A DNA stretch of 38,241 nt, taken from positions 1-38,241 of the IMG/VR virus record IMGVR_UViG_3300030397_000021, one strand, 5' to 3'. Below the pieces are notes generated by a model that saw nothing but the letters and a program-made list of their open reading frames with translations, was not told where the DNA came from and did no database searches. This DNA comes from a virus. The position numbers and the translations under genes were made by a program. This document shows, piece by piece, positions 756-38,232 of the stretch. Numbering within the stretch: position 1 is the first letter of the stretch; the number at the start of each line of letters is the position of its first letter.

Positions 756-1352
756 TTACCCTACGCTTAGTAATTGTGATATTGCATTGTGAGCCGTAAC
801 TTCATCGTCAAAAGGTTTAGCCAGGACATAGCGCCAGCACACATTGAAAGCGGCCTTGTAGTAGTCTCTGAATTGTTCCTCTGACATTGCATTGAAGTTG
901 ATTGATTTAAGTTTACGTCTTGGACCAGTCGGCGTGATCTCAACATCGAAATAACCAGCCTGTTCTTTAATCCAGTCGTGAAGCGCTTCCTTGGTCTTAT
1001 TGGGAACCTGGATTTTTTGCGCCCGGTTCTGGCTTAGAGTTGCAAGAAACTGATCGCCCCAATGAGCCACTTCACCGCCGCCGCCGTTATCATCCAGGAC
1101 TTTGCAAAACCTAGCGATCAGCTTCCTTTCTGCTTCGGTTGTCATTCCATTACACGGCTCCCAATACTCAAACGTCAAAGCGATAAGCCCGGCCCAGTAC
1201 CTTTGATGGTAAGCAAGTGAACGGGCGCTTTGTTGAGTTGCGTTAATCTTGATCGCCTGGCCTATCTTCCAGCTTGCCGCCGCTTCCCTATCTGAATCGG
1301 TAGCGTAGGCAAATCCGTTATTGACCTTAATCAAAACAAATTCTTTAGGCAT
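756..1352 (-). CDS. Conserved phage protein (possibly DUF1367 family)
   Basis: ORF 756..1382. I prefer the ATG at 1352 (MPKEFVLIK...) because GGGAGA lies 5 nt upstream. The position next to ninG and the RSLAYHQRYWAGL motif are reminiscent of DUF1367. The family call is tentative. Confidence 0.6.
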   Translation of the reverse strand: MPKEFVLIKVNNGFAYATDSDREAAASWKIGQAIKINATQQSARSLAYHQRYWAGLIALTFEYWEPCNGMTTEAERKLIARFCKVLDDNGGGGEVAHWGDQFLATLSQNRAQKIQVPNKTKEALHDWIKEQAGYFDVEITPTGPRRKLKSINFNAMSEEQFRDYYKAAFNVCWRYVLAKPFDDEVTAHNAISQLLSVG

Positions 1353-1890
1353 GATTTCTCCCGTGATTTTCATGGAAGCCATGCTTAATATTTGCTTCTT
1401 TCCTTGCGCTAATTGCGTCTGCTATATCAGTGAATGCACCAAGATAAATATACTTTTTATTTACCTGTATTCCTGCCCGCCATTTATTTTGTTTTACATC
1501 CCAAGTAACCCCGGTAAACCCTGATGAATTATTTGCACTCAGCTTCAAATTCTTGGCGTTTTCTTTTTGGGTTACAGATCTTAGGTTGGCGAATGAGTTA
1601 TTCAGGCCGTTGCCGTCAATATGGTCGATTTGTTCTTTTGGAAATGAGCCCGTCATGTAAAGCCACGCTAGTCTGTGAGCTCTATAACTCTTATCTTTAG
1701 CTTTAATGAACACGTATTTTTTGCCGCTGTAGTTTCGTTGTGTTCCAGCTTTCGTGTTCGAGAACCTAGCATTCCAAGAGTTAAATGCCTTATTGGTTTT
1801 AAAAGTTTCTAGTGGTCTTTCGTTCCAAGTGAAAACCCCAGTGATGGGATCGTAATGAAGCAGTTCTTTGAGTTGTGATTGAGTAATCAT
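1345..1890 (-). CDS. Free-standing HNH homing endonuclease with C-terminal AP2 DNA-binding domain
   Basis: HNH_3-type motif YRAHRLAWLY...IDHIDGNGLNNSFANLRSVTQKEN. AP2-like block SGFTGVTWDVKQNKWRAGIQVNKKYIYLGAFTDIADAISARKEA. GAGG lies 5 nt upstream of the ATG. The stop overlaps the next gene's start by 8 nt. Confidence 0.9.
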   Translation of the reverse strand: MITQSQLKELLHYDPITGVFTWNERPLETFKTNKAFNSWNARFSNTKAGTQRNYSGKKYVFIKAKDKSYRAHRLAWLYMTGSFPKEQIDHIDGNGLNNSFANLRSVTQKENAKNLKLSANNSSGFTGVTWDVKQNKWRAGIQVNKKYIYLGAFTDIADAISARKEANIKHGFHENHGRNHA

Positions 1891-2254: not shown

Positions 2255-2286
2255 TGACCTAGCCGTTTTGGTTAGGTCATTTTTTT
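2255..2286 (+). terminator. Intrinsic terminator oriented on the + strand, antisense to the leftward operon
   Basis: tgacctagcc-gtttt-ggttaggtca (10-bp stem, one G-U) followed by seven T. On the minus strand the stem has an A-C mismatch and no U-tract. Confidence 0.6.
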
Positions 2287-2842
2287 ACTTCTCATAAAAC
2301 CCAGGTCTGAAGTCGTACTCAATCACTCTTGAAGGTGCTTTAAGTCCTATCGGCGTGATAATTCCAACCGCACAGCTAAACTTAGGCCCTTGCTCATTCC
2401 CGTTTTTATCCAGGAACTTTGAACCGTCCGGCCTTAAAAATTTAAGTCTGAATGGCATTTCAATGAATGTGTCACAAACTTCTTTAAGCTTTCGGCGATA
2501 AGCCACTTCCGGATTGTTAGGAATGATCATTGCCGTTGTTGTTCCATGCTGTTCACATTGATCAACCGCCCTCTCAATGAATGGCATTACATTTGAAAAC
2601 GGTGGATTGCACCATGCCAGTGTCGGACCGTAAGCATTACCAACCCAAGGAGTAATAAAACAATCCCGATCTTCTTCAAGGGTAAAGTAGTTTTTAGCCT
2701 TAGCCGTTTTTTTAAGGCAGCACACATCAAGATCGAACTCGTTACCCACAAGAGACTCAATTGAACGAATCAACCAAAAAGGCGTTTGGCCTAAATCCTT
2801 TTCGCTTTCCGGTGTGTTTGAATTACTGTTATCTACTGCCAT
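2285..2842 (-). CDS. Phage Dam-family DNA N6-adenine methyltransferase
   Basis: Catalytic motif LAWCNPPFSNVMPFIERAV, and the size and layout are typical of the phage Dam family. ATG at 2842 is preceded by AGGTG at 6 nt (the ORF track extends to a GTG at 2851). Confidence 0.85.
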   Translation of the reverse strand: MAVDNSNSNTPESEKDLGQTPFWLIRSIESLVGNEFDLDVCCLKKTAKAKNYFTLEEDRDCFITPWVGNAYGPTLAWCNPPFSNVMPFIERAVDQCEQHGTTTAMIIPNNPEVAYRRKLKEVCDTFIEMPFRLKFLRPDGSKFLDKNGNEQGPKFSCAVGIITPIGLKAPSRVIEYDFRPGFYEK

Positions 2843-2843
2843 G

Positions 2844-3101
2844 TTACGCACCTAATTTTTTTAGAAGATTTTTAACGCCACGGTGATAACCAACTTCACC
2901 GCGAATATTGAACTTTCCAGTTGAAGGCCAAAAGTCGGCTATCTTTCCGTTGTGATTAACAACAAGGTGAACACCGCGATTCTTTGATTCAAACTGAATG
3001 CCTTTATCAGCAAGAATTTGAGTAGAAGAAACAAGGTTCTTAGCCTTTTTCTTTTTGCCTTCTTCCTTGATGATTTTAAAAACTTCGCCTATCTCGCTCA
3101 T
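2844..3101 (-). CDS. Hypothetical protein (85 aa, basic)
   Basis: The ATG overlaps the upstream stop (ATGA), which indicates translational coupling. No motif recognised. Confidence 0.6.
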   Translation of the reverse strand: MSEIGEVFKIIKEEGKKKKAKNLVSSTQILADKGIQFESKNRGVHLVVNHNGKIADFWPSTGKFNIRGEVGYHRGVKNLLKKLGA

Positions 3102-9196: not shown

Positions 9197-9754
9197 ATGA
9201 AAACGATTTTTACATACGACACTGAAACAACGGGCACACCTAACTGGAAAGTGCCAAGCGATTCACCTGAACAGCCTCACCTTGTTCAACTTGCTGCGGT
9301 ACTTTCTAATGCTGAAACTGGTGAAGAAATTCAATCAATGAACGTGATCATTAAGCCTGACGGCTGGGAGATTCCTGAAGAAGTAACAGCGGTTCACGGT
9401 ATCACAACTGAATACGCGATTGAGCATGGTATTCCCGAAGGAATGGCTGTGGCAATGCTTCACATGATCCGTGGTGACGCTGAACGAGTGGCGTATAACA
9501 AGACTTTTGACCAGCGCATTATTCGTATTGCAATGAAGCGCTATATGTCTGAAGAGTGCATTGAAAAGTGGGCGGTGAAAGAAGATCACCACTGTGCAAT
9601 GCGAATGGCTCAAAAAGAGCTAGGCGGTAAAAATCCAAAGCTTATTGATGCTTACAAGGCTATTTGTGGCAAAGACTTGGTAAATGCTCATAGCGCAATG
9701 GCTGACACACTGGCAGCGCAAGAAATCTTTTTCAAACTTAACTCAGGAGAGTAA
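9197..9754 (+). CDS. DnaQ-like DEDDh 3'-5' exonuclease
   Basis: Exo I FTYDTETTG, Exo II VAYNKTFDQRI, Exo III NAHSAMADTLA. Confidence 0.85.
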   Translation: MKTIFTYDTETTGTPNWKVPSDSPEQPHLVQLAAVLSNAETGEEIQSMNVIIKPDGWEIPEEVTAVHGITTEYAIEHGIPEGMAVAMLHMIRGDAERVAYNKTFDQRIIRIAMKRYMSEECIEKWAVKEDHHCAMRMAQKELGGKNPKLIDAYKAICGKDLVNAHSAMADTLAAQEIFFKLNSGE

Positions 9755-12669: not shown

Positions 12670-12704
12670 CCCTTCAGTAACGATTGACCGCTAACGAGGT
12701 TATC

Positions 12705-13316
12705 ATGCAAGAATTCATTGAAATACCAGCAAATAGAAGATCAATATCAAAGAGAAAGCCAATTTGTGGTGTTGGAATTAATGACGCGAGTTATATAACA
12801 AACTCTTTGGTATTGGGTAAAAAAGTCGTATCACTATCATATAAAACATGGAAGAGCATGATTGAAAGGTGCTATTCAGTTGGTTATCAAAAAAGATTCC
12901 CGACATATGTTGAATGCTTTGTTTGTGATGAGTGGCTTTACTTTAGTAATTTTGACAGATGGTATAAAGATAATTTTATTGAAGGCTACGATCTGGACAA
13001 GGACTTAAAGATAAAAGGCAATAAGGTTTACTCACCGTCTACTTGTATTTTTATACCTCAGTCAGTCAATAAGCTTTTCAATGAGTGTAAATCTGTTCGC
13101 GGAAAGTTCCCAACTGGCGTTTCATTTTCAAAGTCAGCAGGGAAATTCCAGTCTGCCGTAAAGTATAACGGTAAGAGAGTTCACCTTGGTTTCTTCGATT
13201 CTCCAGATCTTGCAAGAGAGGCATACAAGAAAGAAAAGAACAAAGAAATAAAAAGACAGGCAGAAATTTATCCAGAACTAAAGCAATACCTAATAAATCA
13301 TTTACTTGAGGAATAG
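12705..13316 (+). CDS. AP2-domain homing-endonuclease-like protein (no recognisable HNH or GIY-YIG motif)
   Basis: AP2-like block TGVSFSKSAGKFQSAVKYNGKRVHLGFFDSPDLAREAYKKE. The N-terminal YKTWKSMIERCYS...CDEWLYFSNFDRWY block is seen in phage endonuclease-like genes. ATG at 12705 has GAGG 5 nt upstream. Visibly AT-rich codon usage. Confidence 0.7.
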   Translation: MQEFIEIPANRRSISKRKPICGVGINDASYITNSLVLGKKVVSLSYKTWKSMIERCYSVGYQKRFPTYVECFVCDEWLYFSNFDRWYKDNFIEGYDLDKDLKIKGNKVYSPSTCIFIPQSVNKLFNECKSVRGKFPTGVSFSKSAGKFQSAVKYNGKRVHLGFFDSPDLAREAYKKEKNKEIKRQAEIYPELKQYLINHLLEE

Positions 13317-25813: not shown

Positions 25814-26374
25814 ATGAACGAGACAAATACAAAGCTAGAAGAATCGCGCTCACTGGCAATTGTTGCGGCTGTATCTTCAATTGATATTACTGAACGGCGT
25901 GGAAAGATTAACGCACTTGAACAGGCCATGCTTCAGGAAGAGCAAGTTCCTATTGATGTTAACCACCGATTTAATGGTGGTATATATGCGCGTGAAATCA
26001 CCATTCCTAAAGGCACCTTACTAACTGGCCGCATCCATAAGTTTGATCACTTTGATATTATGCTTAGTGGTGACATTTCCGTTTCTACAGATACAGGAGA
26101 AGTTAAGCGCCTTACTGGTTTAAATATCATGGAGGGCAAAGCTGGCAAGAAGCGAGCAGGGTACGCGCACGAAGATACACACTGGATCACGTTCCACTGT
26201 TCTGAGGAGCGTAACCCTGAAGAAATGTATGAGTTCCTAACTTGCGGCTCATTTGAAGAGCTGGAAGAGTTTAATTATTTACTTGATCAAGCAATGAAGC
26301 AAATTGAGCATGATGAGGCTGTATTAACAGAATGCGCTAAAGCTATCGTTGATAAGGGGGATTTATGTCAGTAG
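25814..26374 (+). CDS. Hypothetical virion-module protein (P22 gp14 slot), possibly a beta-barrel
   Basis: 186-aa ORF with AGGGA SD. No catalytic motif recognised. Confidence 0.55.
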   Translation: MNETNTKLEESRSLAIVAAVSSIDITERRGKINALEQAMLQEEQVPIDVNHRFNGGIYAREITIPKGTLLTGRIHKFDHFDIMLSGDISVSTDTGEVKRLTGLNIMEGKAGKKRAGYAHEDTHWITFHCSEERNPEEMYEFLTCGSFEELEEFNYLLDQAMKQIEHDEAVLTECAKAIVDKGDLCQ

Positions 26375-27051
26375 TTGCGGCGGCTATTGTTGGATCTGCT
26401 GTTGTTGGTGGGGTTGCTTCAAGTAAATCAGCGAAAGCACAAAGCCAATCAGCACAGCAAGGTATGGAGGCTGAAGAGCGCATCGCGGCAGAAAACAGAG
26501 AGCTTCAGCGCGAGCTTGCAGGGCAACAACGTGAAGATTTTGCACCTTGGCGAGATATTGGCGAGCAAGCTTTAAATCAAATTTGGTCTGGCATTAAGTC
26601 TGGTGCTTTTGAAGTCGGCGACATTGATGTAACTAAAGATCCTGGCTATCAGTTTAGAATGGACCAGGGAGTTGAGGCGCTAGATAAATCGGCGGCGGCT
26701 CGTGGTCGTTTGTTGAGTGGTGCTCAGCAAAAAGGTGTAACGGATTACTCTCAGAATGTAGCAAGCCAAGAATACGCTAACGCCTACGCGCGTGAAGCTA
26801 ACGAGAAAGCAAGGAAGTTTAATATTCTTTCTGGATTATCTTCTGGTGGTCAAGCTTCTGCTGCTGGACAGGCACAGGCAACAAGCAATCTTGCTCAAAC
26901 TGAAGGAAACATCCTTTCTAATCTTGGTAAAAGTCAGGCATACGGCTACCAACAGCAAGGTCAGGCTAGAGCCGGAGCTTATCAAGGCATGGCGCAAACA
27001 GGGAACCAGGCGGCACAAAACTGGTTAATGTATAAATCACTGGGGGCTTAG
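26365..27051 (+). CDS. Putative ejection/internal virion protein (P22 gp7 slot)
   Basis: 228 aa. N-terminal hydrophobic segment VVAAAIVGSAVVGGVASS, and a Q/G/A-rich C-terminus. Confidence 0.5.
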   Translation: MSVVAAAIVGSAVVGGVASSKSAKAQSQSAQQGMEAEERIAAENRELQRELAGQQREDFAPWRDIGEQALNQIWSGIKSGAFEVGDIDVTKDPGYQFRMDQGVEALDKSAAARGRLLSGAQQKGVTDYSQNVASQEYANAYAREANEKARKFNILSGLSSGGQASAAGQAQATSNLAQTEGNILSNLGKSQAYGYQQQGQARAGAYQGMAQTGNQAAQNWLMYKSLGA

Positions 27052-27053
27052 TA

Positions 27054-27926
27054 ATGGCAGCAAATCAATATGGTATCGACTTAGGTGAGATATACCGAAC
27101 AACCGAAGCGGTTAAAGGTGCTCGCACTCAAAACCGATTATCACAACTACAACTTGATGAGACTGAGCGAGAAATTGCAGAGCGACCAGCTAAAGAGGCG
27201 GCAGCATTAGAGCGTAAAAACTTGCTATCTGGATTGCGTCAAAAAGCGGTTGGCGGTGATGTTAGTGCTCAACAGCAATTATTAGCATTAGATCCTGAAG
27301 GTGGCGCTACGTTTATTGATGCAGTTACCAAGATGGATGAGCGAAAGATTAAAGCAACTCAGCGATCAGTTGATGAAATGGGCCAGCTTGCCGGGTATGT
27401 GCTTCAAGGTAAAACACCTGAAGAACAGGCTCGCCGTTATCAGCTAATGTATCAAGGCGTTTCTCCTGAAGTGCAATCAAAGCTACCAGAGCAATACGAT
27501 CCGCAATTCATGGAGCTGTCACTATCTAAAGCAATGGCAATGGATAAGCTACTTGAAAACCCTAAAGCTATTCAAGTCGGCGGTGAAGACGTTGTTTATA
27601 AGGCTGGTCGTGAGGTCGAGCGCAAGACTCGCCCAGTTAAAACTTCTGATTCTGATGGTGGAGGCGTTAAGTCGGCTGATGAAAGCTTGATGTATCGCCA
27701 GTCAGTAGAATTGCTTGGTGGATTGTTCGATCAGGCTGGTAATATTACAAATCTTGATCCAACCGTTAGGAATAAGGTCCAGGGCATTGCTACCGAAGCA
27801 ACTAAGATTTTCCGTGAAGGTGGCGTGACTCGTTCACAAGCTGTAAAGCAAGCCGCTCAAATGTTTGGGCTTGAAGTTCCTGACGCTGGTAGTACAGTTG
27901 ATAATGACCCTTTAGGTATTCGATGA
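27054..27926 (+). CDS. Putative ejection/internal virion protein (P22 gp20 slot)
   Basis: 290-aa ORF. The function is inferred from synteny only. Confidence 0.45.
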   Translation: MAANQYGIDLGEIYRTTEAVKGARTQNRLSQLQLDETEREIAERPAKEAAALERKNLLSGLRQKAVGGDVSAQQQLLALDPEGGATFIDAVTKMDERKIKATQRSVDEMGQLAGYVLQGKTPEEQARRYQLMYQGVSPEVQSKLPEQYDPQFMELSLSKAMAMDKLLENPKAIQVGGEDVVYKAGREVERKTRPVKTSDSDGGGVKSADESLMYRQSVELLGGLFDQAGNITNLDPTVRNKVQGIATEATKIFREGGVTRSQAVKQAAQMFGLEVPDAGSTVDNDPLGIR

Positions 27927-27968
27927 TAAACGAGCCCTTTAATTAGGGCTTAATACAGGAGAGCCGCC

Positions 27969-30900
27969 GTGAGCGAGTTCATAAAAAGCTTCAGAGAACA
28001 AAATCCTCAATACAATGACATGGCTGATGATCAGCTAGTCACTGCGCTTCACAATAAATACTATTCAGATATTCCAGTCGAAGAGTTTAATCAAAAAATA
28101 GGCTTTCAAGTCGCACCTATCGAGCCGGTTGTTAACGAACCAGTAGCAGATCAAGGTCCTGGACTAATCGCGCAGCCAAGACCGCAAGATCCAGTTAAAC
28201 CTATGTCTGGTTACGGCGCTTCTTCAGACATCCCAATCCAACAACAGGAGCCAATTCCACAGCAACAACCTGTTGACGGCTTCACTGGTGCAGCAATGAA
28301 GGCACCTGAAGAACAAAGCATGTTAGAGCTTGTAGGCTCTAAGCTTTCTGAAATAGGTGGTGGCATTGTTTCAGGCTTTGAGGGCGCACTTCCACAAGCT
28401 AAGCTTCAAGTTGCTGGTATGCTTCAGCAAGGTGAGGTGATGACACCGGAGCAGTTTGAGCAAGAAAAAGACTCTCTTGGTATGCGAATGTTTAATGGTG
28501 ACTATGATAACTATGTCAATTTCTCCAGAGCAAACAAACCGCTTTCAACCTGGCTGGCTGATAAGGGTAAAGAGATCAGCCAAGAAACCAGGGCGGAAAT
28601 GAAACCAAGTGAGTTTGAAAAGGGCTCACCTGGTTACTATTCAGAGGCGATCACTGGCTCAGTTATTAATATGCTTCCGGCATTAGGTGTTTCTTTGGTT
28701 GGTCGCCGCCCTGACATTGGACTTGGGTTGATGTTAGCACAGGCAAAGGGTGGTGCTTATGAGTCAGGCCGCCTTGAAGGTTTAACGCCACAGCAAGCAG
28801 ATAAATATTCAACTCTTATTGCTGCTGCTGAGGCTATTCCTTCAGCCATTCCAGTTATAACACTGCTAAAGCCTACCGGGAAAGTTTTAACAGACTTAGC
28901 GAAAGCTGGCGTTACTGAAGGCGGTCAAGAGGCTGTCACTCAAGCGCTGCAGGCTGGCATTGATAAAGGCTACATTAAGCCAGATATGACACTGGCCGAA
29001 GCATTAGATCGAATGGTTGAAGGTGCGATTATTGGCGCTGGCGCTGGTACTACTATGTCACTGGCAACTGGGCCAGTAGCAGAACGCATGAATAAGCGAG
29101 ATCAAGAAAAGCTTATCGAAACCCAAATCGAAAGTGAGTTTGATGCTTTGCTTCCCGATGCTGAAAAGGCAGCCATTCAAGCGCTATCACCTGAGCAAGC
29201 CCAAATTCAACAAGAGAATAAACCACAGCAAAAACAAGAGCTTAAATCAAAAGAGCCACAAGCGAAACCTGAGCCAGTTAAACCAGTTGCAAAACAAGAG
29301 TTTGAAATTGACAAGGCTCAAACTACTGAACAAGAGCCTGTTGAGCTTGAGACACCTAAAGAGAAGCCAGTTAAACAACAAATCGTTGGCAAGGAAGTTG
29401 TTGAAGCACCGATTGAAGAAATAACTATTAGTGAAGACGTTCCTCAATTCAAAGAAGGCGCTAACGTTAAAGGTGTTGTTGAACCATTGGGCGGTAAGTT
29501 TGAAAGAACTGGCGTTGCTCCTATTCAAATATGGGTCCGTGAAGATGGTCGCAAAGAAGTGATCAGCGGCCGCCACCGTTTAGACTTAGCTGAACGTAGT
29601 GGAGAAAAAACAATCCCGGCTCAATATCATTATGAGTCTGAAGGTTTCGGAGCAGATCAGGCGGCTGTGCTTGATGCCATGCTTAACATTCGTGAAGGTC
29701 AAGGTAAGGTAAAAGATTATGTCGATTTCATCAAAGCAACAAAACCAAGAAAAGCGGAAGCAGAGTCACAAGGAATACTGGCAAGGCAGACGGGCAAACG
29801 GGCTTTCACAATCGCAACTGAAGGAAGTGATGCGCTCATTACCAGCCACCGAAACGATCAGCTAACTGATGAGGCAGCAACTCGCATAGCAGAAGCGGCA
29901 CCACGCAACGAGAAACTTCAATCCGTTGGTATTAAGGCTATTCAAGACGGTAAATCTATTGCTGTTGCTGAGAATATGGTTAAAGCCGTTAAAACCATGA
30001 CAGACGAAACAGCGCAGCAAAGCGGTGATCTGTTTGGGTTCGATGATTCTGCTATGATAGAAGCTGAAAACCTGGCGAAAGCGGCAGTTAAGAAGCAAAA
30101 CGAAATCCAAAAAACTTTGTCGGCGGTACAGGGCGCAGCTAAGAGACCAGAGCTAGCCGCTAAAGAAGGCGTTGACGTTAAAAACCCTGAAGCTATCAAG
30201 GCCCGTATTGCTGAGCTTAAAGAGCAAAAGAGTGATTGGCAAAACTGGCACACTAACCCTAAGTTAACCAAAGAGCTTAAAGCTCAACCTGAAAGGGCGG
30301 TAACTGATGAGAAGCCAGCGATCACGGAAGAAGTTGAAGCACCAACACCAGAGCCAGCGGCGCAACCTTTACCTAAAGAGAAAGATACCTTTACCAACTG
30401 GAACGCTAAGGATAGTGAAGGCGGTCCGGCTGAACAGTCATTCACTCGCGGCGAATACGCCAAGGCAATAAATAGCGATAGCAAAGGCACCTTTTTTGAC
30501 GGTGGTGAAATTGAAGGTATCTCTCAAGCTAAGCAGCAAGCCAAGATTAATGGCGTTTGGCATGACTTTGGTTCTATCGTTAAAGCTGATAAGCCTGATC
30601 CCGTTAAAAAGCCAACTAAGCCAATGTCTGAAGTTGTCGAGTCTGTTAGCAAGAAGAAAGGCAAAGGTTTAACTGATGCTGATAAAGTGCCAGCACCTAA
30701 AGCTGATTACGCCGCCGAGCCAGCACAAGCTTATCGATCTTTCATGGAATCGGTAGCCAATCAAACCGCTACTGTTGCCGAAATTAAAGCTGATGCTGAA
30801 AGTCTGGTTAAAAACAAAGACGCTATCATTGCCAAGATGAGTGATCGAAAGTTCACCAAGGCAATGCTTCAGCAAATAACCCACTCGCCACGCACTGATC

Positions 30901-33900
30901 TCAAAAAGCCTCAAATGGTTAATAGTGCGTATGAGTCAATGCTTGCGGCTCACGTTATGGGTGATGCTACGTTTACCATCTTCGGAGGTTCTAAAACCTA
31001 CGAACAGCAAATGATGGAGAAGATTAACAAGCAGACTCAAGCCGATGTTGACGCAGCTTACGAGAAGCAACGTGAATACCGCGCTCAAATGAAGCAACGT
31101 AAAGACGAGTTTGTTAAATCACTATCTAACCCAGAAACCTTGCCAGAGTTTAAAGAGTTTATCCGTGTTCGCGGTAAAGACAAAATGAGCACTGAACAAC
31201 TGGCCGCTTATGACGAGCTTGTTGCTGAATCAATGGCAGAAGTTAAGCCTGAAGTTGTCAAAGCTGAAACTGAAGCCGTAACCACTGAGCGAGCTCAAAC
31301 CAAGCACACTAAAACAGGTGCGGATCTGTTTGTAGTTAAAATGGTTGGCCGTGTGCCTAAAGAACAATTCAGAGAGATAAGCGGAAAGGCTAAGCAGCTA
31401 GGCGGCTATTACTCTTCTTACTCAAAAGGTGACGCGATACCAGGCTTTCAATTTAAAACGATTGAAGCAGCTGATCAGTTTGAGCAGTTACTATCTGGCA
31501 AAGATGTGGATAAAAGCGACTTTGCGGAAGCCAAGGCTGAAGTGAAGCAGTCAAAGAAAGCTGACAAGCTTCTAGATATGGCTGAAAAGATGGAAGCCAA
31601 GGCCACAGAAGAGATTAGCAGGCCAAGACAGGCAAATACAGCAAGACGCGCTTCAATGGCTGCTAACGCCACTGAGAGAGCTGAGAAGCAACTAGCTTTA
31701 GCTAAGACGATTCGCAATATCGCCGTTAAGCTTCAGGAAGGTGAAGTTAAACACCTGGGCCAAATGAGCCAGGTTACACAGCTTGAAGAACTGATCACCA
31801 TTCAAAGACGCGCAATACCTAATGATTTGTATGAACAAGGCTCGTTTGATGGTTACTCAATTAGCCGGCCACTTAAAGAAGGCGTGACGGTTGACGACTA
31901 CATTAACCGTGTTGACTTCCCTGGTATCGAGCTTGATAGCGGAATCATTGAGCGCGTAGCCGATACATTAAAAGGTAAGCGTGGCTATGCTCGCCTATCT
32001 GCTGAGCTTCGCAAGTTGCCAAAAGGTAAGCGTGATTCACTTCGTAAGCTTACAAAAGAGCAAGGCGACAAGATCATGGCGGCCAATAAAGCCGGACTTC
32101 TTGAAGCTTATTCTCTTAGCTGGCTACCGGATCAGGTCGCAACATTAAACCGATTAGGCAAGTTGGGGATCTCAACTGGCGAGCAGTTACGCGCAGCTAT
32201 TCGTGAACTTGATTCTCTTCGAGTAGCTAAACGACAAGAAGACCCAGTTAAAAAGCTTGAGCGTGATTTAGTTGGTAAGAAGATTGAAGGCTTCTTTCCT
32301 ACGCCTACGCCATTGGTTGATCAGATGATTGACTATGCAGACATTAAACCAGGGCATGAGGTTTTAGAGCCTTCCGCTGGTAAGGGTAACATTGCAGATC
32401 AGATCATGGTTTCCGCGCCGGATGCCTCGCTTGATGTTGTTGAGTACAACACTTCGCTTGCTTCATTGCTTGAGGTAAAAGGCTATAACGTTGTTGGTAA
32501 TGACTTCCTTGAATACTCCGGCAAGCAGTATGACCGCATCGTGATGAATCCACCGTTTGAAAACTTCCAGGACATTGACCATGTTAAACATGCTTATGAC
32601 CTGTTAAAGCCCGGTGGAAAGCTTGTGGCTATCATGGGGGCTGGTGTGAAGAACTCGCGCAAGAAGGCGGTTGAGTTCCGTAAGTGGCTTGATGATGCTG
32701 GCAGTTATATTGAAGACTTGCCTGAAGGAAGCTTTAAAGGTTCAGAGCGTTCGACTGGCGTTAACACTGTAATGGTGACGATTGAGAAAAACGACACTAA
32801 CACGCTTAACTACAAGAAGGATGACAGCAAAGTTTCACCTACACCGAAAGATGGTGAGCGTGTATTTCATGCGCCTGGTCATAACTTCATTGGTACACAT
32901 AGATCTCTTGGGTATCCACCAAGGCATGAGATTGTAACCATTGAAGGCCGTAAGGTTAAGATCCCTGAGAAGCCTCAGCGCATTGAGCCGATAATGAGCA
33001 AGCTGATTAAGATAACTGGCCGCCGTATTTACTTTGGGAAAATCAAAGGTAAGTCTACTGAAGGTTTCTATCGTCCTAACGTTGGTGAGATCAGAACGCG
33101 CAGCAAGAATGACGTTGAAGTATTGGCGCACGAAATGGCCCACTACCTTGATGTGTATTCAAACATCACTCTACCTAACTTCCAGAAGCTTTACAAAGAT
33201 CCGAAGTATTCTAGTGAAGTGTCCGCGCTTAGCTATACCGATGCTGATCCGAAGATTGAAAAAATTGAAGGGTTCGCTGAGTTTGTGCGCCTATGGCTAA
33301 CGAATGCCAATGAAGCACAATTGAGAGCGCCTAAGTTCTACGATGCGTTTACCAACGAGTTAGCGCGTGATCGTAAGCTGCTTAATCCTATGCGTGATAT
33401 GCAGGACCTAATGCACAAGTTCTACTTTCAGGGTCCGGATAAGTTAGGCCAAGCGTTAATTGGTCAAGATGTTTCATTCAAGCAGCGCTTTAACGAATGG
33501 GCTTATCGCCGTGACTCGCGCATTCGTCAGCAAGTTATTGATCGATTTCATGCTGCAAGAAAGATTGAGCAAGAGTTAACCCGTAAAATCGGAACCGTTG
33601 AAGAGTCAGCATGGAAGCAATTCAGAATTGCCAATGGTGGCGCGGAAGGTATATCTGATTACATTCTTAACTATGGCACCGTTCAGTTTGACGAAAAAGG
33701 CGACCTTAAACGTAGCGGTAAAAGCTTACATGAGGTGATGGAGCCAGTTAAAACAATCAAGCTAAAGCCTGAGCATGAAGGCGAACAGAAGATTGATTTA
33801 CTAATGCGTTACTTTGCTGGTCGCCGAGCGTTAGAGCTTCACCGCCAGAAGCGTGAAAACCTGATCCCTAAGGAAACCGCTAAGGAATGGGCTCGACTTG

Positions 33901-36131
33901 GTAAAGACTACCCGGTGTTTGAGTCTATCCAGAAAGAATACCAACAGTTTAATGATCGCATGATGGACTTTTACGAAGAGGCCGGAATGATTACGCCTGA
34001 AGGCCGTAAAACAATGCAGTCAATGAATAAAGACTATGTACCTTTCAACCGTATCCGTGATCAGCTTGCTGGTGGTAAAGGTGCGGCTAGTGCCGGATTC
34101 CAAAAACTTAAAGGTGGAACCGCTAACCTGAATGATATTTTGGTAAACATTCAAGACGGAATAACGGCAAATGTCCGATCGGCATTAAACAACCGAGCTA
34201 AGCAGCGACTTTATCAATACATTTCAGGTCACAAAGACGGGGCGATTTTTGCAACCAAGATAGCGCCGGATTCTAAGCCTGTTCAGGTTTACGCCGATGA
34301 AATGCAAGCCAAGATCAGCAAGGTCCTTGAAGCTAACGGAATTGAGATAGAAGGTGATCTTGATTTAGCCGGAAAAGAACTTCTTACTTTTTGGCAACAC
34401 GGTGTTGCGCCTCGCGTTAATGAGTCGGGCAATATCGTTGATTCAGTGATCATCAATGGCAAGCCGAAGTATTACGAAGTGCAAGATCCGATGCTTCAAG
34501 AAATGCTTATGTCAATGAATCCTGAAAGCTACAGTTCATTTATGAATGTGATGTTCGGGGTTAAAAACTTCTTTACCCGTACCATTACGCTAGGTATTGA
34601 GTTTACCGGTGCTAACCTGGTGCGTGATACGGTTGGCGCGACATTCCTTAGTAAGAATAATTTCAAGCCGTTTATAAGTTCGTTCCAGGGTATGTATTCG
34701 TTTTTAGCTAAAGACAAATATTACCAAGACTTTATTCGTTCCGGTGGCGGTCACTCTAGCCGACTTGAGGGTGCAACTCGTGACAGCCAGGCAAGACGAA
34801 GAGTTAAGCTTGATGAATTTGGCGTTATGACTGGACCAGAGCGATTGTTAAGCAGTATTGATAATTTAGCTAGTGCTTTTGAGTATGGCACTCGTATTGG
34901 TGAATACAGACTTGCCAAGAAAAATATGAAGTCTGACATGGACGCTGGTTTTGATGCGAGAGAGATCTCAACTGACTTTAGTGTTCTTGGTGCTAACAGG
35001 TTCCTGACTGGCTACATTCGCACAGTTCCGTTCCTAAACGCGATGGTTCAATCACAGGATCGAGTCTTCAGGGAAGCGGTAGTGAGTAAGCGTTATGACG
35101 GAAACCCTACAGGCATGGCTATGAAGGCGTTTCTTGGCATTACGGTGCCGACTCTGATCCTTTATTTGGTGAATAAAGATGACGAAGATTACAAAGCAAT
35201 ACCGGATTACGAAAAAAGAACTAACTGGCATATTAAAATCGGTGACGGTCAGTTCGTTAAAATTCCTCGTCCTTATGATGTTGGTTTTGTTTATGCAACG
35301 ATGCCTGAATTATTTGCAAAGTATGTAGAAGATGACAAAGGCAAAGAGTTTGCTGACGGCATGTTGTGGACCATGACTCAGATGTATGGAATTGATGGCA
35401 CTCCGGCAATGATGACGGGATGGTGGGACCTGGTTAGAAATGAGAAATGGACAGGTGCGCCAGTTGTGCCGCAATCTCTTTCTGATGTTGAGGCTCCTGA
35501 ACAGTACACATCAAACACAAGCGAAACCTTTGTTCGCATGGGTGAGGCTTTAGGTATCAGCCCTATAAAAGCTGAGCACATGTTTAAGGCATACACTGGT
35601 TATCTTGGCGGTTATTTAATGGCTGGTACTGATCACCTGCTTTGGGATGAATCTAAATTTGGAGAAAAGCCAGATCGTAAGTTATCTGAAAATGTATTCT
35701 TGCGCCGCTTCTTGACTCCTGACGTTCGCCCGTCCACTGCTAATATGGAGAAGTTTTTCGAACTAAAAGAACAGTCTGATAAAATAGTTTCGACCTTTAA
35801 GCAAACTGTTGATGTTCGCCGAAAAATTAAAGGACAAGGCGGTGAAGGCAAGTTTAAAGATGATAATTTTTACGGGCTATCGGCTAAAGAAAAAGAAGTT
35901 CTATTTGGCCTAAATGATTCTATGAATCAATTAATTAAGCTAATGTATGGTAAGGAAGGTATTAAAACCGCTGAGCTTAAAATCAAATATGACAAAAATT
36001 TGTCTGGTAAAGAAAAGCGTGAGCAAATGGATAAGCTATGGCTTGCTCGCAATAAAGCATTTGAAACGTACTATAACCAAGCTAATCAGGCTTTACAGAA
36101 GGCCAAACGAGAAGCAAAACAGGAGAAATAA
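27969..36131 (+). CDS. Giant 2,720-aa multidomain (polyvalent) virion-module protein: hydrophobic N-region, ParB-like nuclease, N6-adenine methyltransferase, HExxH zincin, large unassigned C-terminal region
   Basis: Uninterrupted 8,163-nt ORF. GTG start with AGGAG 7 nt upstream. Motifs read directly: ISGRHRL (aa 532), FFPTPTPLVDQM...VLEPSAGKGNI...IVMNPPF...LLKPGGKLVAIM (aa 1442-1555), HEMAH (aa 1721). It occupies the gp16 slot between the ejection-protein-like ORFs and the tailspike. Confidence 0.9.
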   Translation: MSEFIKSFREQNPQYNDMADDQLVTALHNKYYSDIPVEEFNQKIGFQVAPIEPVVNEPVADQGPGLIAQPRPQDPVKPMSGYGASSDIPIQQQEPIPQQQPVDGFTGAAMKAPEEQSMLELVGSKLSEIGGGIVSGFEGALPQAKLQVAGMLQQGEVMTPEQFEQEKDSLGMRMFNGDYDNYVNFSRANKPLSTWLADKGKEISQETRAEMKPSEFEKGSPGYYSEAITGSVINMLPALGVSLVGRRPDIGLGLMLAQAKGGAYESGRLEGLTPQQADKYSTLIAAAEAIPSAIPVITLLKPTGKVLTDLAKAGVTEGGQEAVTQALQAGIDKGYIKPDMTLAEALDRMVEGAIIGAGAGTTMSLATGPVAERMNKRDQEKLIETQIESEFDALLPDAEKAAIQALSPEQAQIQQENKPQQKQELKSKEPQAKPEPVKPVAKQEFEIDKAQTTEQEPVELETPKEKPVKQQIVGKEVVEAPIEEITISEDVPQFKEGANVKGVVEPLGGKFERTGVAPIQIWVREDGRKEVISGRHRLDLAERSGEKTIPAQYHYESEGFGADQAAVLDAMLNIREGQGKVKDYVDFIKATKPRKAEAESQGILARQTGKRAFTIATEGSDALITSHRNDQLTDEAATRIAEAAPRNEKLQSVGIKAIQDGKSIAVAENMVKAVKTMTDETAQQSGDLFGFDDSAMIEAENLAKAAVKKQNEIQKTLSAVQGAAKRPELAAKEGVDVKNPEAIKARIAELKEQKSDWQNWHTNPKLTKELKAQPERAVTDEKPAITEEVEAPTPEPAAQPLPKEKDTFTNWNAKDSEGGPAEQSFTRGEYAKAINSDSKGTFFDGGEIEGISQAKQQAKINGVWHDFGSIVKADKPDPVKKPTKPMSEVVESVSKKKGKGLTDADKVPAPKADYAAEPAQAYRSFMESVANQTATVAEIKADAESLVKNKDAIIAKMSDRKFTKAMLQQITHSPRTDLKKPQMVNSAYESMLAAHVMGDATFTIFGGSKTYEQQMMEKINKQTQADVDAAYEKQREYRAQMKQRKDEFVKSLSNPETLPEFKEFIRVRGKDKMSTEQLAAYDELVAESMAEVKPEVVKAETEAVTTERAQTKHTKTGADLFVVKMVGRVPKEQFREISGKAKQLGGYYSSYSKGDAIPGFQFKTIEAADQFEQLLSGKDVDKSDFAEAKAEVKQSKKADKLLDMAEKMEAKATEEISRPRQANTARRASMAANATERAEKQLALAKTIRNIAVKLQEGEVKHLGQMSQVTQLEELITIQRRAIPNDLYEQGSFDGYSISRPLKEGVTVDDYINRVDFPGIELDSGIIERVADTLKGKRGYARLSAELRKLPKGKRDSLRKLTKEQGDKIMAANKAGLLEAYSLSWLPDQVATLNRLGKLGISTGEQLRAAIRELDSLRVAKRQEDPVKKLERDLVGKKIEGFFPTPTPLVDQMIDYADIKPGHEVLEPSAGKGNIADQIMVSAPDASLDVVEYNTSLASLLEVKGYNVVGNDFLEYSGKQYDRIVMNPPFENFQDIDHVKHAYDLLKPGGKLVAIMGAGVKNSRKKAVEFRKWLDDAGSYIEDLPEGSFKGSERSTGVNTVMVTIEKNDTNTLNYKKDDSKVSPTPKDGERVFHAPGHNFIGTHRSLGYPPRHEIVTIEGRKVKIPEKPQRIEPIMSKLIKITGRRIYFGKIKGKSTEGFYRPNVGEIRTRSKNDVEVLAHEMAHYLDVYSNITLPNFQKLYKDPKYSSEVSALSYTDADPKIEKIEGFAEFVRLWLTNANEAQLRAPKFYDAFTNELARDRKLLNPMRDMQDLMHKFYFQGPDKLGQALIGQDVSFKQRFNEWAYRRDSRIRQQVIDRFHAARKIEQELTRKIGTVEESAWKQFRIANGGAEGISDYILNYGTVQFDEKGDLKRSGKSLHEVMEPVKTIKLKPEHEGEQKIDLLMRYFAGRRALELHRQKRENLIPKETAKEWARLGKDYPVFESIQKEYQQFNDRMMDFYEEAGMITPEGRKTMQSMNKDYVPFNRIRDQLAGGKGAASAGFQKLKGGTANLNDILVNIQDGITANVRSALNNRAKQRLYQYISGHKDGAIFATKIAPDSKPVQVYADEMQAKISKVLEANGIEIEGDLDLAGKELLTFWQHGVAPRVNESGNIVDSVIINGKPKYYEVQDPMLQEMLMSMNPESYSSFMNVMFGVKNFFTRTITLGIEFTGANLVRDTVGATFLSKNNFKPFISSFQGMYSFLAKDKYYQDFIRSGGGHSSRLEGATRDSQARRRVKLDEFGVMTGPERLLSSIDNLASAFEYGTRIGEYRLAKKNMKSDMDAGFDAREISTDFSVLGANRFLTGYIRTVPFLNAMVQSQDRVFREAVVSKRYDGNPTGMAMKAFLGITVPTLILYLVNKDDEDYKAIPDYEKRTNWHIKIGDGQFVKIPRPYDVGFVYATMPELFAKYVEDDKGKEFADGMLWTMTQMYGIDGTPAMMTGWWDLVRNEKWTGAPVVPQSLSDVEAPEQYTSNTSETFVRMGEALGISPIKAEHMFKAYTGYLGGYLMAGTDHLLWDESKFGEKPDRKLSENVFLRRFLTPDVRPSTANMEKFFELKEQSDKIVSTFKQTVDVRRKIKGQGGEGKFKDDNFYGLSAKEKEVLFGLNDSMNQLIKLMYGKEGIKTAELKIKYDKNLSGKEKREQMDKLWLARNKAFETYYNQANQALQKAKREAKQEK
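29421..29738 (+). other. ParB/Srx-fold nuclease-like domain within the giant ORF
   Basis: IEEITISEDVPQFKEG...APIQIWVREDGRKEVISGRHRLDLAERSGEKTIPAQ. The GxHR motif lies at 29562-29579. Confidence 0.6.
32286..32786 (+). other. Gamma-class SAM-dependent N6-adenine DNA methyltransferase core within the giant ORF (no obvious TRD)
   Basis: Motif order X (FFPTPTPLVDQM), I (VLEPSAGKGN), IV (NPPF at 32547-32558), then LLKPGGKLVAIM, as in M.TaqI-type enzymes. Only about 75 aa follow before the next module. Confidence 0.75.
32886..33368 (+). other. Zincin-like metallopeptidase module (HExxH) within the giant ORF
   Basis: VEVLAHEMAHYLD (HEMAH at 33129-33143), with a downstream EGFAEF as a possible third ligand. 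The assignment rests on this motif only. Confidence 0.45.
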
Positions 36132-36132
36132 T

Positions 36133-38232
36133 ATGGCAGTTTCAATGATTGGGCCCAAGTTTTATGCTTGGGACAGAAACGGCAAACCACTGGCCTTCGG
36201 TAAGTTATACACCTATCAGGCACGTACTAACATCCCAAAGCCAACGTACCAGTCTGAAGATCAGATTGTCGAGAATACGAACCCTGTAATTCTTAATGGT
36301 GAGGGCTATGCCAATGTTTATTTGGATGGCTCTTACAAGATGACGCTCAAAGATTCGAATGACAATGAAATATGGTCATCTGATCCTGTAACATCGCAGT
36401 CTGCAAATGAGTGGGTGGGGTGTAGTTCTGTTACATATTTGAGCGCAAAGTCCTTTAAATTGATCGGGAATTATTCAGAAAGCTTTGAAGTTGGAATAGC
36501 AGTTAGAGTTAACAATTCATTACTTTACTCATATTCAACTGTTGAGTCTTCAGTTTTTGCAGGTGGAGAAACTACGGTAACGTTGATTGATTCTATTGTT
36601 GAAACTTCTGTTATATCTGCTTGTCATTCAATAGTTGGCCCTAAATCCATATCAATTGATAACGCGATAGTAACATCAACGGGAGCTACTAAAGGAAAGT
36701 CTTTAGCTGATAGGTTTGCTGATATAGATGGGATAGTAGATTCTACCTATAACATACCTGGCGATTTCGCTGATTGGACTGAGCTTTCTGAGTTTCTTGA
36801 GCAGAAATTATATGGCGGAACTAAAATAGTAGTAAGTATTGAACCTGGTATTTACCAGTGGGAAACGCTTCCTGAAATTTTTGGTAAAGAGTGGGGTAAT
36901 GGTAGAGTTTCATTTGTTGGAGCTGGCATTGATGTTACAACCATACAGTTTGACAAAAAAGATGGGGTTTATGCAGGTGCATTAAGTTCATTTGGTAAGG
37001 GACCGCAATTCCCAGTACCATCAAGTGACACAATACCAATAGTTGATAACCTGACACTGTCGGGAATAGATAGATCAATAGCAATAGACGATCCTTATTT
37101 AGATTCTATGGGTATTAGAGCTTTTGACGGTGGATTTGTTGCAATCGGTGCTGATGTTCGCATTACTCAATTCGCACGTGTTGGGGTTATGTCCGAGCGA
37201 AATGCGTTTGTGTATTGCCCTGGCATTGAAGTAGATACAACAGGGTCAGACTGTTTCGCAGCTTCACTAGGAGGTAAGATATATTGTCCTAACACGGTGG
37301 CTGATAATCCGCTTGGTCATTGTTATATAGGGTTCAGTAATGGGTATCTATATATGCCGAACTGCGTCGCATCTAATGCAGAACTTCGGCAAGATGGGCT
37401 AGGCGGGTCTGGCTTGGTGCTTACTGACGGTTCTCACGCGAGGGCTTTAAATTTTCAAGTCACAAACTGCGATGAAAGACCTATATCAGTTGCATTGGGC
37501 TCAACATGTTACGCGGAAGGTTTTAGTGAAAGCGGTAATGGTAAGCCCGTAACGGTTGCTCACGCTGGGAGTTGCTTGACCGCACCGAACGCAACAATTG
37601 TAAAGGCTAGTGGGGAACTCGCATTATTCGTAGAGAAAGAGGGACAAGCTACGTTTCAAGTTTCATCAACAGATGAGGTGTCTATAACAGGAAGGGTAAC
37701 AATCCAAGGGTGTTCTACTGTGCATATGCCAGATTCAAACATAATAAACTCCATCGGCACGAGTTTGTTTGTCAGTAACTCGACAGTTGACGCAGATCGC
37801 ATTGATTTCAGCGGATCGCCATCTCTGATTGCGCAAGCTGTTGATGGTGCAGTTCTTAAGATGGCTAACGGAACCGCTGAACCATCTACTGGTAGCGGTG
37901 TGTTATGTGATTCTGCTGAGGTACATGCTAAATCATTTTCATTGGCTGGAGCTGGTACTGATGGATTCAGAACTGAAAATGGAGGCAGGTCATACCTTAA
38001 TGGATCTACGGTCGGGAATGTAGGCCGCTATTCAATATTCTCTGATGGTCTTGGCTCATTCACAGATGCGAAGAATACAGTTGTGCAAGATGCGTTTGAT
38101 GGTTATCGATGCAATAACGGAGGCCATATATACGGGGTTGGTTCATCTGCTGATGGTGTTTATGTTGGTGCTGATTACAATCCAGTAATCAACACACCTG
38201 ACGCCGGACAACTGACATTGATTGTTAAGTAA
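36133..38232 (+). CDS. Tailspike/tail fibre with conserved N-terminal adaptor domain and beta-helix-like C-terminal region (likely polysaccharide depolymerase)
   Basis: ATG at 36133 with AGGAG at 36121-36125 (the ORF-track start at 35947 overlaps the giant ORF). The N-terminus FYAWDRNGKPLAFGKLYTYQARTNIPKPTYQSEDQIVENTNPVILNGEGYANVYLDGSYKMTLKDSNDNEIWSSDPV is typical of phage tail-fibre N-domains. The remainder is rich in G/S/T/N/V repeating strands. Confidence 0.8.
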   Translation: MAVSMIGPKFYAWDRNGKPLAFGKLYTYQARTNIPKPTYQSEDQIVENTNPVILNGEGYANVYLDGSYKMTLKDSNDNEIWSSDPVTSQSANEWVGCSSVTYLSAKSFKLIGNYSESFEVGIAVRVNNSLLYSYSTVESSVFAGGETTVTLIDSIVETSVISACHSIVGPKSISIDNAIVTSTGATKGKSLADRFADIDGIVDSTYNIPGDFADWTELSEFLEQKLYGGTKIVVSIEPGIYQWETLPEIFGKEWGNGRVSFVGAGIDVTTIQFDKKDGVYAGALSSFGKGPQFPVPSSDTIPIVDNLTLSGIDRSIAIDDPYLDSMGIRAFDGGFVAIGADVRITQFARVGVMSERNAFVYCPGIEVDTTGSDCFAASLGGKIYCPNTVADNPLGHCYIGFSNGYLYMPNCVASNAELRQDGLGGSGLVLTDGSHARALNFQVTNCDERPISVALGSTCYAEGFSESGNGKPVTVAHAGSCLTAPNATIVKASGELALFVEKEGQATFQVSSTDEVSITGRVTIQGCSTVHMPDSNIINSIGTSLFVSNSTVDADRIDFSGSPSLIAQAVDGAVLKMANGTAEPSTGSGVLCDSAEVHAKSFSLAGAGTDGFRTENGGRSYLNGSTVGNVGRYSIFSDGLGSFTDAKNTVVQDAFDGYRCNNGGHIYGVGSSADGVYVGADYNPVINTPDAGQLTLIVK

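Follow-up and report, generated by a model that had tools for sequence, protein, structure and literature searches.

The 38,241-nucleotide (nt) sequence of the IMG/VR virus record IMGVR_UViG_3300030397_000021, referred to here as the window, carries a single uninterrupted open reading frame (ORF) of 2,720 codons at positions 27969 to 36131 of the plus strand. Its product, hereafter the giant protein, is probably a large internal virion protein, or ejection protein, of the LPD38 class of polyvalent proteins, and it would hold the place of gp16 in an otherwise P22-like phage. An initial annotation, made by a model from the sequence and its predicted reading frames, had proposed a polyvalent protein in the ejection-protein slot of such a phage and had suggested that it acts in counter-defence. 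The analysis described below agrees with the first of these proposals and leads to a different emphasis for the second.

Results

An 8.2-kb ORF in the gp16 position of a P22-like gene module

The ORF initiates with a GTG codon, which is separated by 7 nt from an AGGAG ribosome-binding site read from the sequence (27957–27961, plus strand), and it ends with a stop codon at 36129–36131. At 8,163 nt it accounts for 21.3% of the window and encodes a protein 4.5 times the length of P22 gp16 (609 amino acids, aa), values that match the single 8.2-kb ORF, about 21% of the genome and about 4.5 times gp16, initially described. The G+C fraction of the ORF, 0.42–0.46, is the same as that of the remainder of the window, and the entire gene product matches PHROG 15406 with 2353 bits. 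By megablast, the gene is found at approximately 92% nucleotide identity in isolated Vibrio and Shewanella podoviruses (1.183.O, 1.211.A/B, D478, ten V. crassostreae phages and X14 of the genus Bocovirus), and at 77% identity in Thalassomonas phage BA3. Protein searches additionally recover intact orthologs of 2,606–2,742 aa in many phage genomes or contigs of 36–38 kb. Because intact orthologs are numerous, the ORF is real and conserved, and an assembly or frameshift artefact is ruled out.

The possibility that an internal promoter or terminator splits the gene was likewise rejected, as no terminator-like sites are present on the plus strand inside the gene and promoter-like sites are depleted. 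Five sigma-70-like promoter matches were observed between window positions 26000 and 38241, compared with 19.1 ± 3.9 expected from shuffled sequences. This depletion fits a single long late transcript spanning the giant gene. A short G+C-rich hairpin (AGCCC...GGGCT, 27933–27950) is located in the 42-nt gap between the upstream gene and the giant gene, and was scored by the scan solely as a minus-strand terminator-like site.

The placement of the giant ORF in the ejection-protein slot is established by the PHROG-supported order of its neighbors, which runs terS, terL, portal, scaffold, coat, Ad3 adaptor, Hc3 (P22 gp10 type), two small proteins, a gp7-type protein, a 290-aa protein, the giant ORF and a tailspike-slot gene. 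The P22 portal and gp10 are also recognized in pairwise comparison, and the order around the giant-gene slot is identical in BA3, X14 and two metagenomic relatives. Upstream of the giant gene are the genes for the 228-aa gp7-type “DNA ejection” protein (26365–27051, plus strand; phrog_598, E = 5e-44) and for the 290-aa protein that occupies the gp20 slot (27054–27926, plus strand; phrog_36852, no Pfam matches). No match to P22 gp16 was obtained by BLASTP or phmmer for any of the 14 structural-module ORFs compared. The proposed P22-like gene order is supported by PHROG matches. The 186-aa protein equated with P22 gp14 (25814–26374, plus strand) matches PHROGs annotated “short tail fiber protein” and “tail fiber adhesin” (E = 5e-55), and no similarity to P22 gp14 was found for it, so that its equivalence to gp14 is one of position only.

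Downstream, the tailspike-slot gene (36133–38232, plus strand) most likely begins with the ATG at 36133, two nucleotides past the stop of the giant ORF, and therefore does not truly overlap it. The alternative start at 35947, which would create a 185-nt overlap, is an artefact of the mechanical ORF list. The AGGAG sequence of this gene is contained in the final codons of the giant ORF, an arrangement suggestive of translational coupling.

A constant C-terminal module defines the protein family

Mapping of 120 homologs onto the giant protein defines four blocks, termed modules A through D, wherein the two terminal modules are constant and the two middle modules vary among relatives. Module D (32799–36128, plus strand; aa 1611–2720) is a unit of about 1,100 aa that defines the family. 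Although the initial annotation recognized no motif in the last ~900 aa, this portion belongs to the most conserved module of the protein. Identity to the closest relatives is 97–98% in module D versus 66–68% in aa 1–800. Cluster searches with module D return 11,210 protein clusters at E ≤ 1e-3 and 3,249 at E ≤ 1e-30, with the match nearly always at the C terminus of a protein of 1,000–4,100 aa. An AlphaFold2 (AF2) model of aa 1610–2720 has a predicted local distance difference test score (pLDDT) of 74 and a predicted template modeling score (pTM) of 0.64. It yields 68 structural matches in BFVD at E ≤ 1e-3, the best of which cover the entire module, including proteins from E. coli phage PTXU04 (E = 1.7e-43), Ralstonia phage Alix and many uncultured phages. 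Searches with tblastn add VvAW1, pelagiphages, Bacillus megaterium podophages and cyanophages.

The Pfam family LPD38 (PF18857) is matched over its full length at aa 2405–2577 (35181–35699, plus strand), with an E value of 3e-47 and a score of 161.6 bits against a cutoff of 27. Together with the three unrelated enzyme domains described below, this match identifies the giant protein as polyvalent. Just before LPD38 is the most hydrophobic segment of the protein (35115–35171, plus strand; aa 2383–2401; Kyte–Doolittle 1.80 over 19 residues), a candidate membrane helix. The most conserved motif of module D is YVPFNR (34035–34052, plus strand; aa 2023–2028), in which R2028 is invariant. YVPFNR resembles the motif that gives “PLxRFG” proteins their name. 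In the BLAST map, however, the methyltransferase module is all that such proteins have in common with the giant protein.

Near the start of module D, aa 1650–1800 (32916–33368, plus strand) form a zincin-like metallopeptidase domain. The sequence HEMAH at aa 1721 (33129–33143) is followed 46 residues downstream by EGFAE (aa 1767–1771), and the AF2 model places a beta-sheet ahead of two helices that bear these two motifs. The Glu and the second His of HExxH (E113 and H116) do not vary among 10 sequences with identities as low as 20%, and EGFAE is nearly invariant among closer relatives. The best Foldseek match in the PDB is anthrax lethal factor (probability 0.85, E = 0.58), followed by IrrE/PprI-type proteases, and Pfam Peptidase_M91 reaches only E = 0.12 in this region. 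Thus, the HExxH helix, the downstream Glu and the preceding beta-sheet point to a zincin, to which the structural matches lend weak fold support.

A constant N-terminal module with hydrophobic helices

Module A (aa 1–470) is N-terminal in every relative mapped, and in Bcep22-like proteins it is placed after an SLT domain. It begins with a small, conserved helical domain (27969–28103, plus strand; aa 1–45; pLDDT 81–91) that matches no known family. These 45 residues are kept at 48–77% identity in relatives (P0018 and P0061) in which the module that follows is different or highly diverged, and they possibly serve as an incorporation or targeting signal.

The core of module A (28296–29168, plus strand; aa 110–400) is all-helical in the AF2 model and includes hydrophobic Gly/Ala-rich helices. 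Hydropathy by the Kyte–Doolittle scale reaches 1.57 at aa 227–245 and 1.77 at aa 282–300, with a weaker Gly/Ala-rich stretch at aa 353–371 (1.15). Segments exceeding 1.5 are therefore present in both constant modules, and the hydrophobic helices at aa 227–300, like that at aa 2383–2401, are candidate membrane segments. The core is followed by a first linker rich in Pro, Glu, Lys and Gln (29169–29408, plus strand; aa 401–480), in which these four residues make up a fraction of 0.52–0.62 and pLDDT falls below 50 at aa 405–475. A region of similar composition is present at aa 750–800, and both it and aa 400–480 are predicted to be disordered.

The middle of the protein carries exchangeable enzyme modules

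Module B (29409–30293, plus strand; aa 481–775) is a swappable unit that consists of a ParB/sulfiredoxin-fold domain and a helical domain. The ParB/sulfiredoxin core spans approximately aa 515–575 and contains the sequence GRHR at aa 534 (29568–29579), which is invariant in 12 homologs. When Pfam was run directly on the full-length protein and on nine parts of it, neither this domain nor the zincin was detected, and their recognition needed family alignments and structure prediction. Pfam ParB_N is matched by five of 12 homologs of aa 481–775 (best E = 8e-4), and the family profile aligns to the ParB family protein Noc (7ng0) precisely at the GxxR motif. When the AF2 model of aa 1–800 was submitted to Foldseek, the top 18 matches were all KorB, ParB, Noc, pNOB8 ParB, PadC or Srx structures, 16 of them with a probability of 0.87–1.0, at E values of only 5e-3 to 0.3 and a local pLDDT of about 50–70. 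The predicted fold and the GxxR arginine therefore argue for membership of module B in the ParB/sulfiredoxin superfamily. The module (aa ~470–790) is also mobile: orthologs from V. crassostreae phages lack it, and unrelated giant proteins have it at other positions. It is followed by a second linker and a poorly conserved region (30294–30668, plus strand; aa 776–900), where homolog coverage is the lowest in the protein and pLDDT is below 50 from aa 776.

Module C (aa ~900–1610) comprises an N6-adenine methyltransferase core (32154–32798, plus strand; aa 1396–1610) and a 500-aa N-terminal extension (30669–32153, plus strand; aa 901–1395) that has no Pfam matches and travels with the methyltransferase. 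Pfam MTS is matched at aa 1463–1558 with 30 bits against a cutoff of 23. The “TP” motif FPTP, motif I (LEPSAGKG, 32364–32387) and motif IV (NPPF, aa 1527; 32547–32558) are all invariant in 10 homologs, and the combination TP...NPPF is the signature described for EcoKI/TaqI-like and DarB-type methyltransferases of polyvalent proteins (Iyer 2017, PMC5512222). A 10-sequence profile matches KsgA/Dim1/Erm rRNA adenine methyltransferases as well as the DNA enzymes M.TaqI, BseCI and HsdM (E = 2e-6 to 4e-4). N6-adenine chemistry is thus well supported for this core on sequence grounds, and the profile does not separate a DNA from an RNA substrate, with KsgA and Erm scoring as well as the three DNA enzymes. 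Comparison of the whole protein with PDB sequences by phmmer gave marginal methyltransferase matches only, and the NCBIfam scan gave nothing useful. No helicase family was found in the Pfam, NCBIfam or PHROG scans of the giant protein, wherein the zincin directly follows the methyltransferase.

Module C is absent from many orthologs. It is common to phage proteins and to “PLxRFG domain-containing” proteins of bacterial genome records, mostly from Pseudomonas aeruginosa. Among homologs, the ParB block and the methyltransferase block are each present or absent independently of one another.

All three enzyme domains and the other sequence features named in the initial annotation are recovered by these analyses. 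Hydropathy peaks, residue composition and low pLDDT reproduce its hydrophobic Gly/Ala-rich segments and P/E/K-rich linkers; the Pfam MTS score, profile matches and invariant motifs bear out a complete N6-adenine methyltransferase core; and the conserved HEMAH...EGFAE arrangement is consistent with its HExxH zincin. Its ParB-like GxHR motif, a candidate nuclease motif, agrees with the ParB_N matches in homologs, the Noc alignment and the Foldseek result. GRHR, NPPF and HEMAH are each found where they had been placed and are conserved.

Size variants in one slot and a natural replacement

Sibling phages carry versions of the giant protein in the same slot that range from 1,721 to 3,867 aa. For the 1,721-aa version, inspection of the genome confirmed the identical slot of the P22-like module, and LPD38 is the only Pfam family recorded in the protein. 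The DarB-like 3,867-aa version (P0051; GCA_030153465.1, contig positions 6001–17604) includes an Eco57I-type methyltransferase and an SNF2 helicase, and its gene takes up 30% of the 38,349-bp contig. The giant proteins of other relatives carry GNAT acetyltransferase, SprT or GGDEF domains.

In the sibling Vibrio phage 1.184.A (MG592550.1, 5862–9570), the giant gene is no longer intact. Homology to the window extends across the gene for the gp7-like protein and breaks off within the 290-aa gene, at position 27641 of the window. Two short, unannotated scars of the giant gene (window 34999–35127 and 35947–36395) are retained directly before the tailspike gene. The replacement cassette encodes a different C terminus of the 290-aa homolog and an 819-aa protein. 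Pairwise comparison of the latter with P22 gp16 and with module A gave no similarity, and the protein matches no Pfam or PHROG family. Its homolog in Aeromonas phage 4_4512 (tblastn, E = 5e-44) is annotated “DNA transfer protein”, which is the usual label of P22 gp16. The scars, together with a cassette that has a “DNA transfer protein” relative, indicate that the giant gene was replaced and not simply lost. The kinship of the substitute with an annotated P22-type ejection protein is an argument for an ejection function of the giant protein in this slot.

Relationship to known ejection and polyvalent proteins

An ejection-protein assignment already exists for an ortholog. BA3_0002 was identified as a homolog of T7 IVP-D (gp16) in an otherwise P22-type phage by joining hidden Markov models stepwise, and the giant methylase-bearing proteins of the F116 group were described as IVP-D homologs and virion proteins (Hardies 2016, PMC4819975). 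Our comparisons are consistent with this assignment, if weakly. The hydrophobic Gly-rich stretch of module A at aa 292–374 aligns with T7 gp16 at aa ~341–412 (E = 0.004 with the single sequence). With an eight-sequence profile of T7-group gp16 proteins, the match has E = 8e-4 and a probability of 24%; this profile was built from GenBank phages, the T7 gp16 search itself having given only proteins of at least 94% identity. BA3 gene 0002 and X14 ORF1 share the slot and flanking genes of the giant gene, and their module D is 84–97% identical. The N-terminal modules of BA3 differ, because BA3 shares only ~64% of the giant gene, at 77% nucleotide identity.

The giant protein resembles P22 gp16 and T7 gp16 (IVP-D) in gene-order position and in being large and helical with hydrophobic segments. 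Unlike them, it is 2–4.5 times larger and carries enzymes that require the cytoplasm, as does N4 gp50 (the virion RNA polymerase). No similarity to the P22 gp16 family was detected by BLASTP or phmmer (E > 0.3) or by profile comparison (E = 0.26–0.27), and phrog_770 is absent from the PHROG matches.

Polyvalent proteins were defined by Iyer 2017 (PMC5512222), who listed zincin, N6-adenine methyltransferase and ParB among their hub domains, found LPD38 restricted to the phage type and reported the same lethal-factor match for the peptidase of the N4 virion RNA polymerase. According to their prediction, such proteins travel inside the capsid, are delivered together with the DNA and are processed by the zincin domain. 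The giant protein conforms to this phage type in joining unrelated enzymes (zincin, methyltransferase and ParB superfamily) with an LPD domain in one huge polypeptide, encoded among the late or virion genes of a portal–terminase element as judged by its PHROG neighbors. It departs from this type in that the methyltransferase lacks its usual helicase partner, LPD36 was not detected and the ParB domain matches the generic ParB_N rather than the DdrB-ParB model. The exact domain order was found only in close relatives such as X14, D478, 1.183.O and 1.211.A.

Two more distant podovirus proteins with a C-terminal LPD38 domain are known from virions. JC1 gp69 (4,515 aa) was found in purified virions by proteomics, with 51 unique peptides (PMC9144972). 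The protein gp47 of phi24B (2,811 aa) is also present in purified virions and has been proposed to be an ejection protein; it is abundant by proteomics, and the cryo-EM map does not show it in the tail or in the capsid shell (bioRxiv 10.64898/2026.04.10.717836). Bcep22-like proteins align with modules A and D at 24–39% identity. The Bcep22, JC1 and phi24B proteins differ from the giant protein in carrying a lytic transglycosylase, a methyltransferase with an SNF2 helicase, and LPD3/LPD1/LPD5/MuF domains, and they are hosted in 60-kb genomes of the F116/933W type rather than in a 38-kb P22-like genome.

The initial annotation drew a comparison with P1 DarB. Like the giant protein, DarB has a gamma-class N6-adenine methyltransferase with the signature TP...NPP(Y/F). 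DarB is packaged in the head and acts in cis to shield incoming DNA against type I restriction. However, DarB pairs its methyltransferase with an SF2 helicase and depends for packaging on DarA, Hdf and DdrA/B, whereas no helicase and no dar partners were seen for the giant protein. A helicase pair is present in the sibling P0051. Because the giant protein has no SF2 helicase, the comparison fails on the defining feature of DarB.

The class, its predicted delivery and the ejection-protein assignment of the BA3 ortholog are thus already published, and close orthologs are deposited in GenBank as “methylase”. The present analysis contributes the explicit separation of constant from variable modules, the series of sizes found in a single slot and the replacement in 1.184.A with its scars.

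Discussion

A proposed constant delivery apparatus with variable cargo

The finding of LPD38 homologs in JC1 and phi24B virions makes virion delivery of the giant protein plausible. The ORF, its slot, the identities of its domains, the constant-versus-variable architecture and the replacement in 1.184.A are shown by the comparisons above, whereas packaging, ejection, insertion into membranes, self-cleavage and enzyme substrates are projected from homologs or from gene position. On this basis, modules A and D would bring the protein into the capsid and, at infection, carry it out through the tail, where they would help build or extend a DNA conduit across the envelope. The middle region would be cargo that differs between phages, which in the window comprises the ParB/sulfiredoxin-fold domain and the helicase-less N6-adenine methyltransferase. 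These enzymes would reach the cytoplasm together with the leading DNA, ahead of all phage gene expression. Their most likely job would be to modify or protect the incoming genome, and a counter-defence role for the cargo is plausible. The zincin may cut the polypeptide at the disordered linkers and thereby free the modules.

Several observations weigh against the assignment as an ejection protein. The T7 gp16 signal of module A is weak, with its probability of 24%, and comes from Gly/Ala-rich sequence of low complexity. For module D, hhalign gave no similarity to T7 gp14, gp15 and gp16 or to P22 gp7, gp20 and gp16 (E = 0.26–0.62), and T7-group gp16 was not matched either as single sequence or as profile (E = 0.28–0.57). 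Its profile gives only coiled-coil noise and no ejection protein against PDB sequences, and Foldseek of module D against the PDB recognizes only the zincin sub-domain, with the cyanophage A4 pre-ejectosome at a probability of 0.02. Phage 1.184.A shows that this virion type can live without the giant protein. Knock-down of the polyvalent protein gp25 of PTXU04 strongly lowers plating in E. coli (PMC11879866); this points to a homolog being essential and so favors the assignment, but the same defect would be expected if the protein were an indispensable counter-defence factor. Finally, the X14 paper only remarks that a methyltransferase domain sits in the largest gene, which it names “DNA methylase subunit” and files under the regulation module.

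Alternative explanations

The strongest form of the counter-defence proposal is that the giant protein is mainly a virion-delivered effector like P1 DarB, dispensable for assembly and DNA entry and needed only on defended hosts. Such an effector could have the TP...NPPF signature of DarB-type enzymes that is seen in module C, the turnover of cargo among near-identical phages resembles an arms race and 1.184.A lives without the giant gene. In 1.184.A, however, the gene is replaced rather than simply deleted, and the methyltransferase–helicase pair that defines DarB is missing from the giant protein. This explanation also leaves the conserved 60% of the protein unaccounted for. Module D, the most conserved 40%, has no counter-defence annotation and occurs alone or without recognizable enzyme cargo. 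The slot is that of an essential ejection protein, for which the structural-module ORFs compared offer no other gp16 equivalent, and the PTXU04 homolog is needed for plating. Moreover, the anti-Dnd, anti-restriction and anti-retron determinants mapped in sibling V. crassostreae phages are early-region Dam/PAPS-Dam and exonuclease genes (Piel et al., bioRxiv 10.1101/2021.05.05.442762). Their counterparts in the window are a stand-alone Dam-type methyltransferase (2285–2851, minus strand; Pfam Dam, E = 1.6e-22), which gives the phage a Dam enzyme of its own, and an RNase T/DnaQ-type exonuclease (9197–9754, plus strand). We therefore consider a primary counter-defence effector unlikely.

That same Dam gene would be available for genome methylation and bears on a second alternative, wherein the giant protein stays out of the virion and works as an enzyme of the cytoplasm, expressed late, that methylates progeny genomes ahead of their packaging. 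Several GenBank records name the giant gene in this sense, the methyltransferase core is intact and late expression would coincide with DNA packaging. Yet the methyltransferase accounts for only ~8% of the protein and many orthologs in the slot lack it, the LPD38 homologs are virion proteins and a length of 2,720 aa with hydrophobic helices and disordered linkers would be hard to explain for a simple modification enzyme, which makes this alternative very unlikely. An external or assembly-only structural role (as part of the tail, as a ruler resembling a tape measure or as a scaffold) with inactive relic enzyme domains appears more improbable still. The gene is indeed within the block of tail and virion genes, the protein is largely helical and some relatives are annotated “virion structural protein” and one “putative portal”. 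However, relic domains would not be expected to keep their catalytic motifs across distant homologs, as is the case for GRHR, methyltransferase motifs I and IV and the Glu and second His of HExxH. The abundance of phi24B gp47 despite its absence from the cryo-EM map fits an internal location, and podoviruses have no tape measure.

Implications of the probable ejection-protein assignment

If the giant protein is an internal virion protein, as we favor, a more specific scheme can be drawn. The constant modules might be a general delivery vehicle, with the methyltransferase and the ParB-like domain acting while tethered to the ejection channel. The ParB-like domain might be a CTP-gated clamp, as are ParB, Noc and KorB, so that the genome would be methylated, or its leading end clamped, while threading into the cell, and ejection would supply the translocation that DarB obtains from its helicase. 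This scheme is speculative, and the chance that it holds is small.

Giant LPD38 proteins are present in more than 10,000 protein clusters, including those of abundant marine pelagiphages, and none has a demonstrated mechanism. The natural series in one slot (1,721 aa, 2,720 aa, 3,867 aa and the “DNA transfer protein” replacement) would separate DNA entry from cargo function, and would also allow testing whether injected enzymes protect the genome before phage gene expression. With regard to annotation, “DNA methylase” is misleading as a name for these genes.

Other genes in the window

Two HNH endonuclease genes were noted at 12684–13316 (plus strand) and 1345–1890 (minus strand). One is located ~1.9 kb upstream of terS; in the other, HNH_3 is joined to an AP2 DNA-binding domain in the manner of a homing endonuclease.

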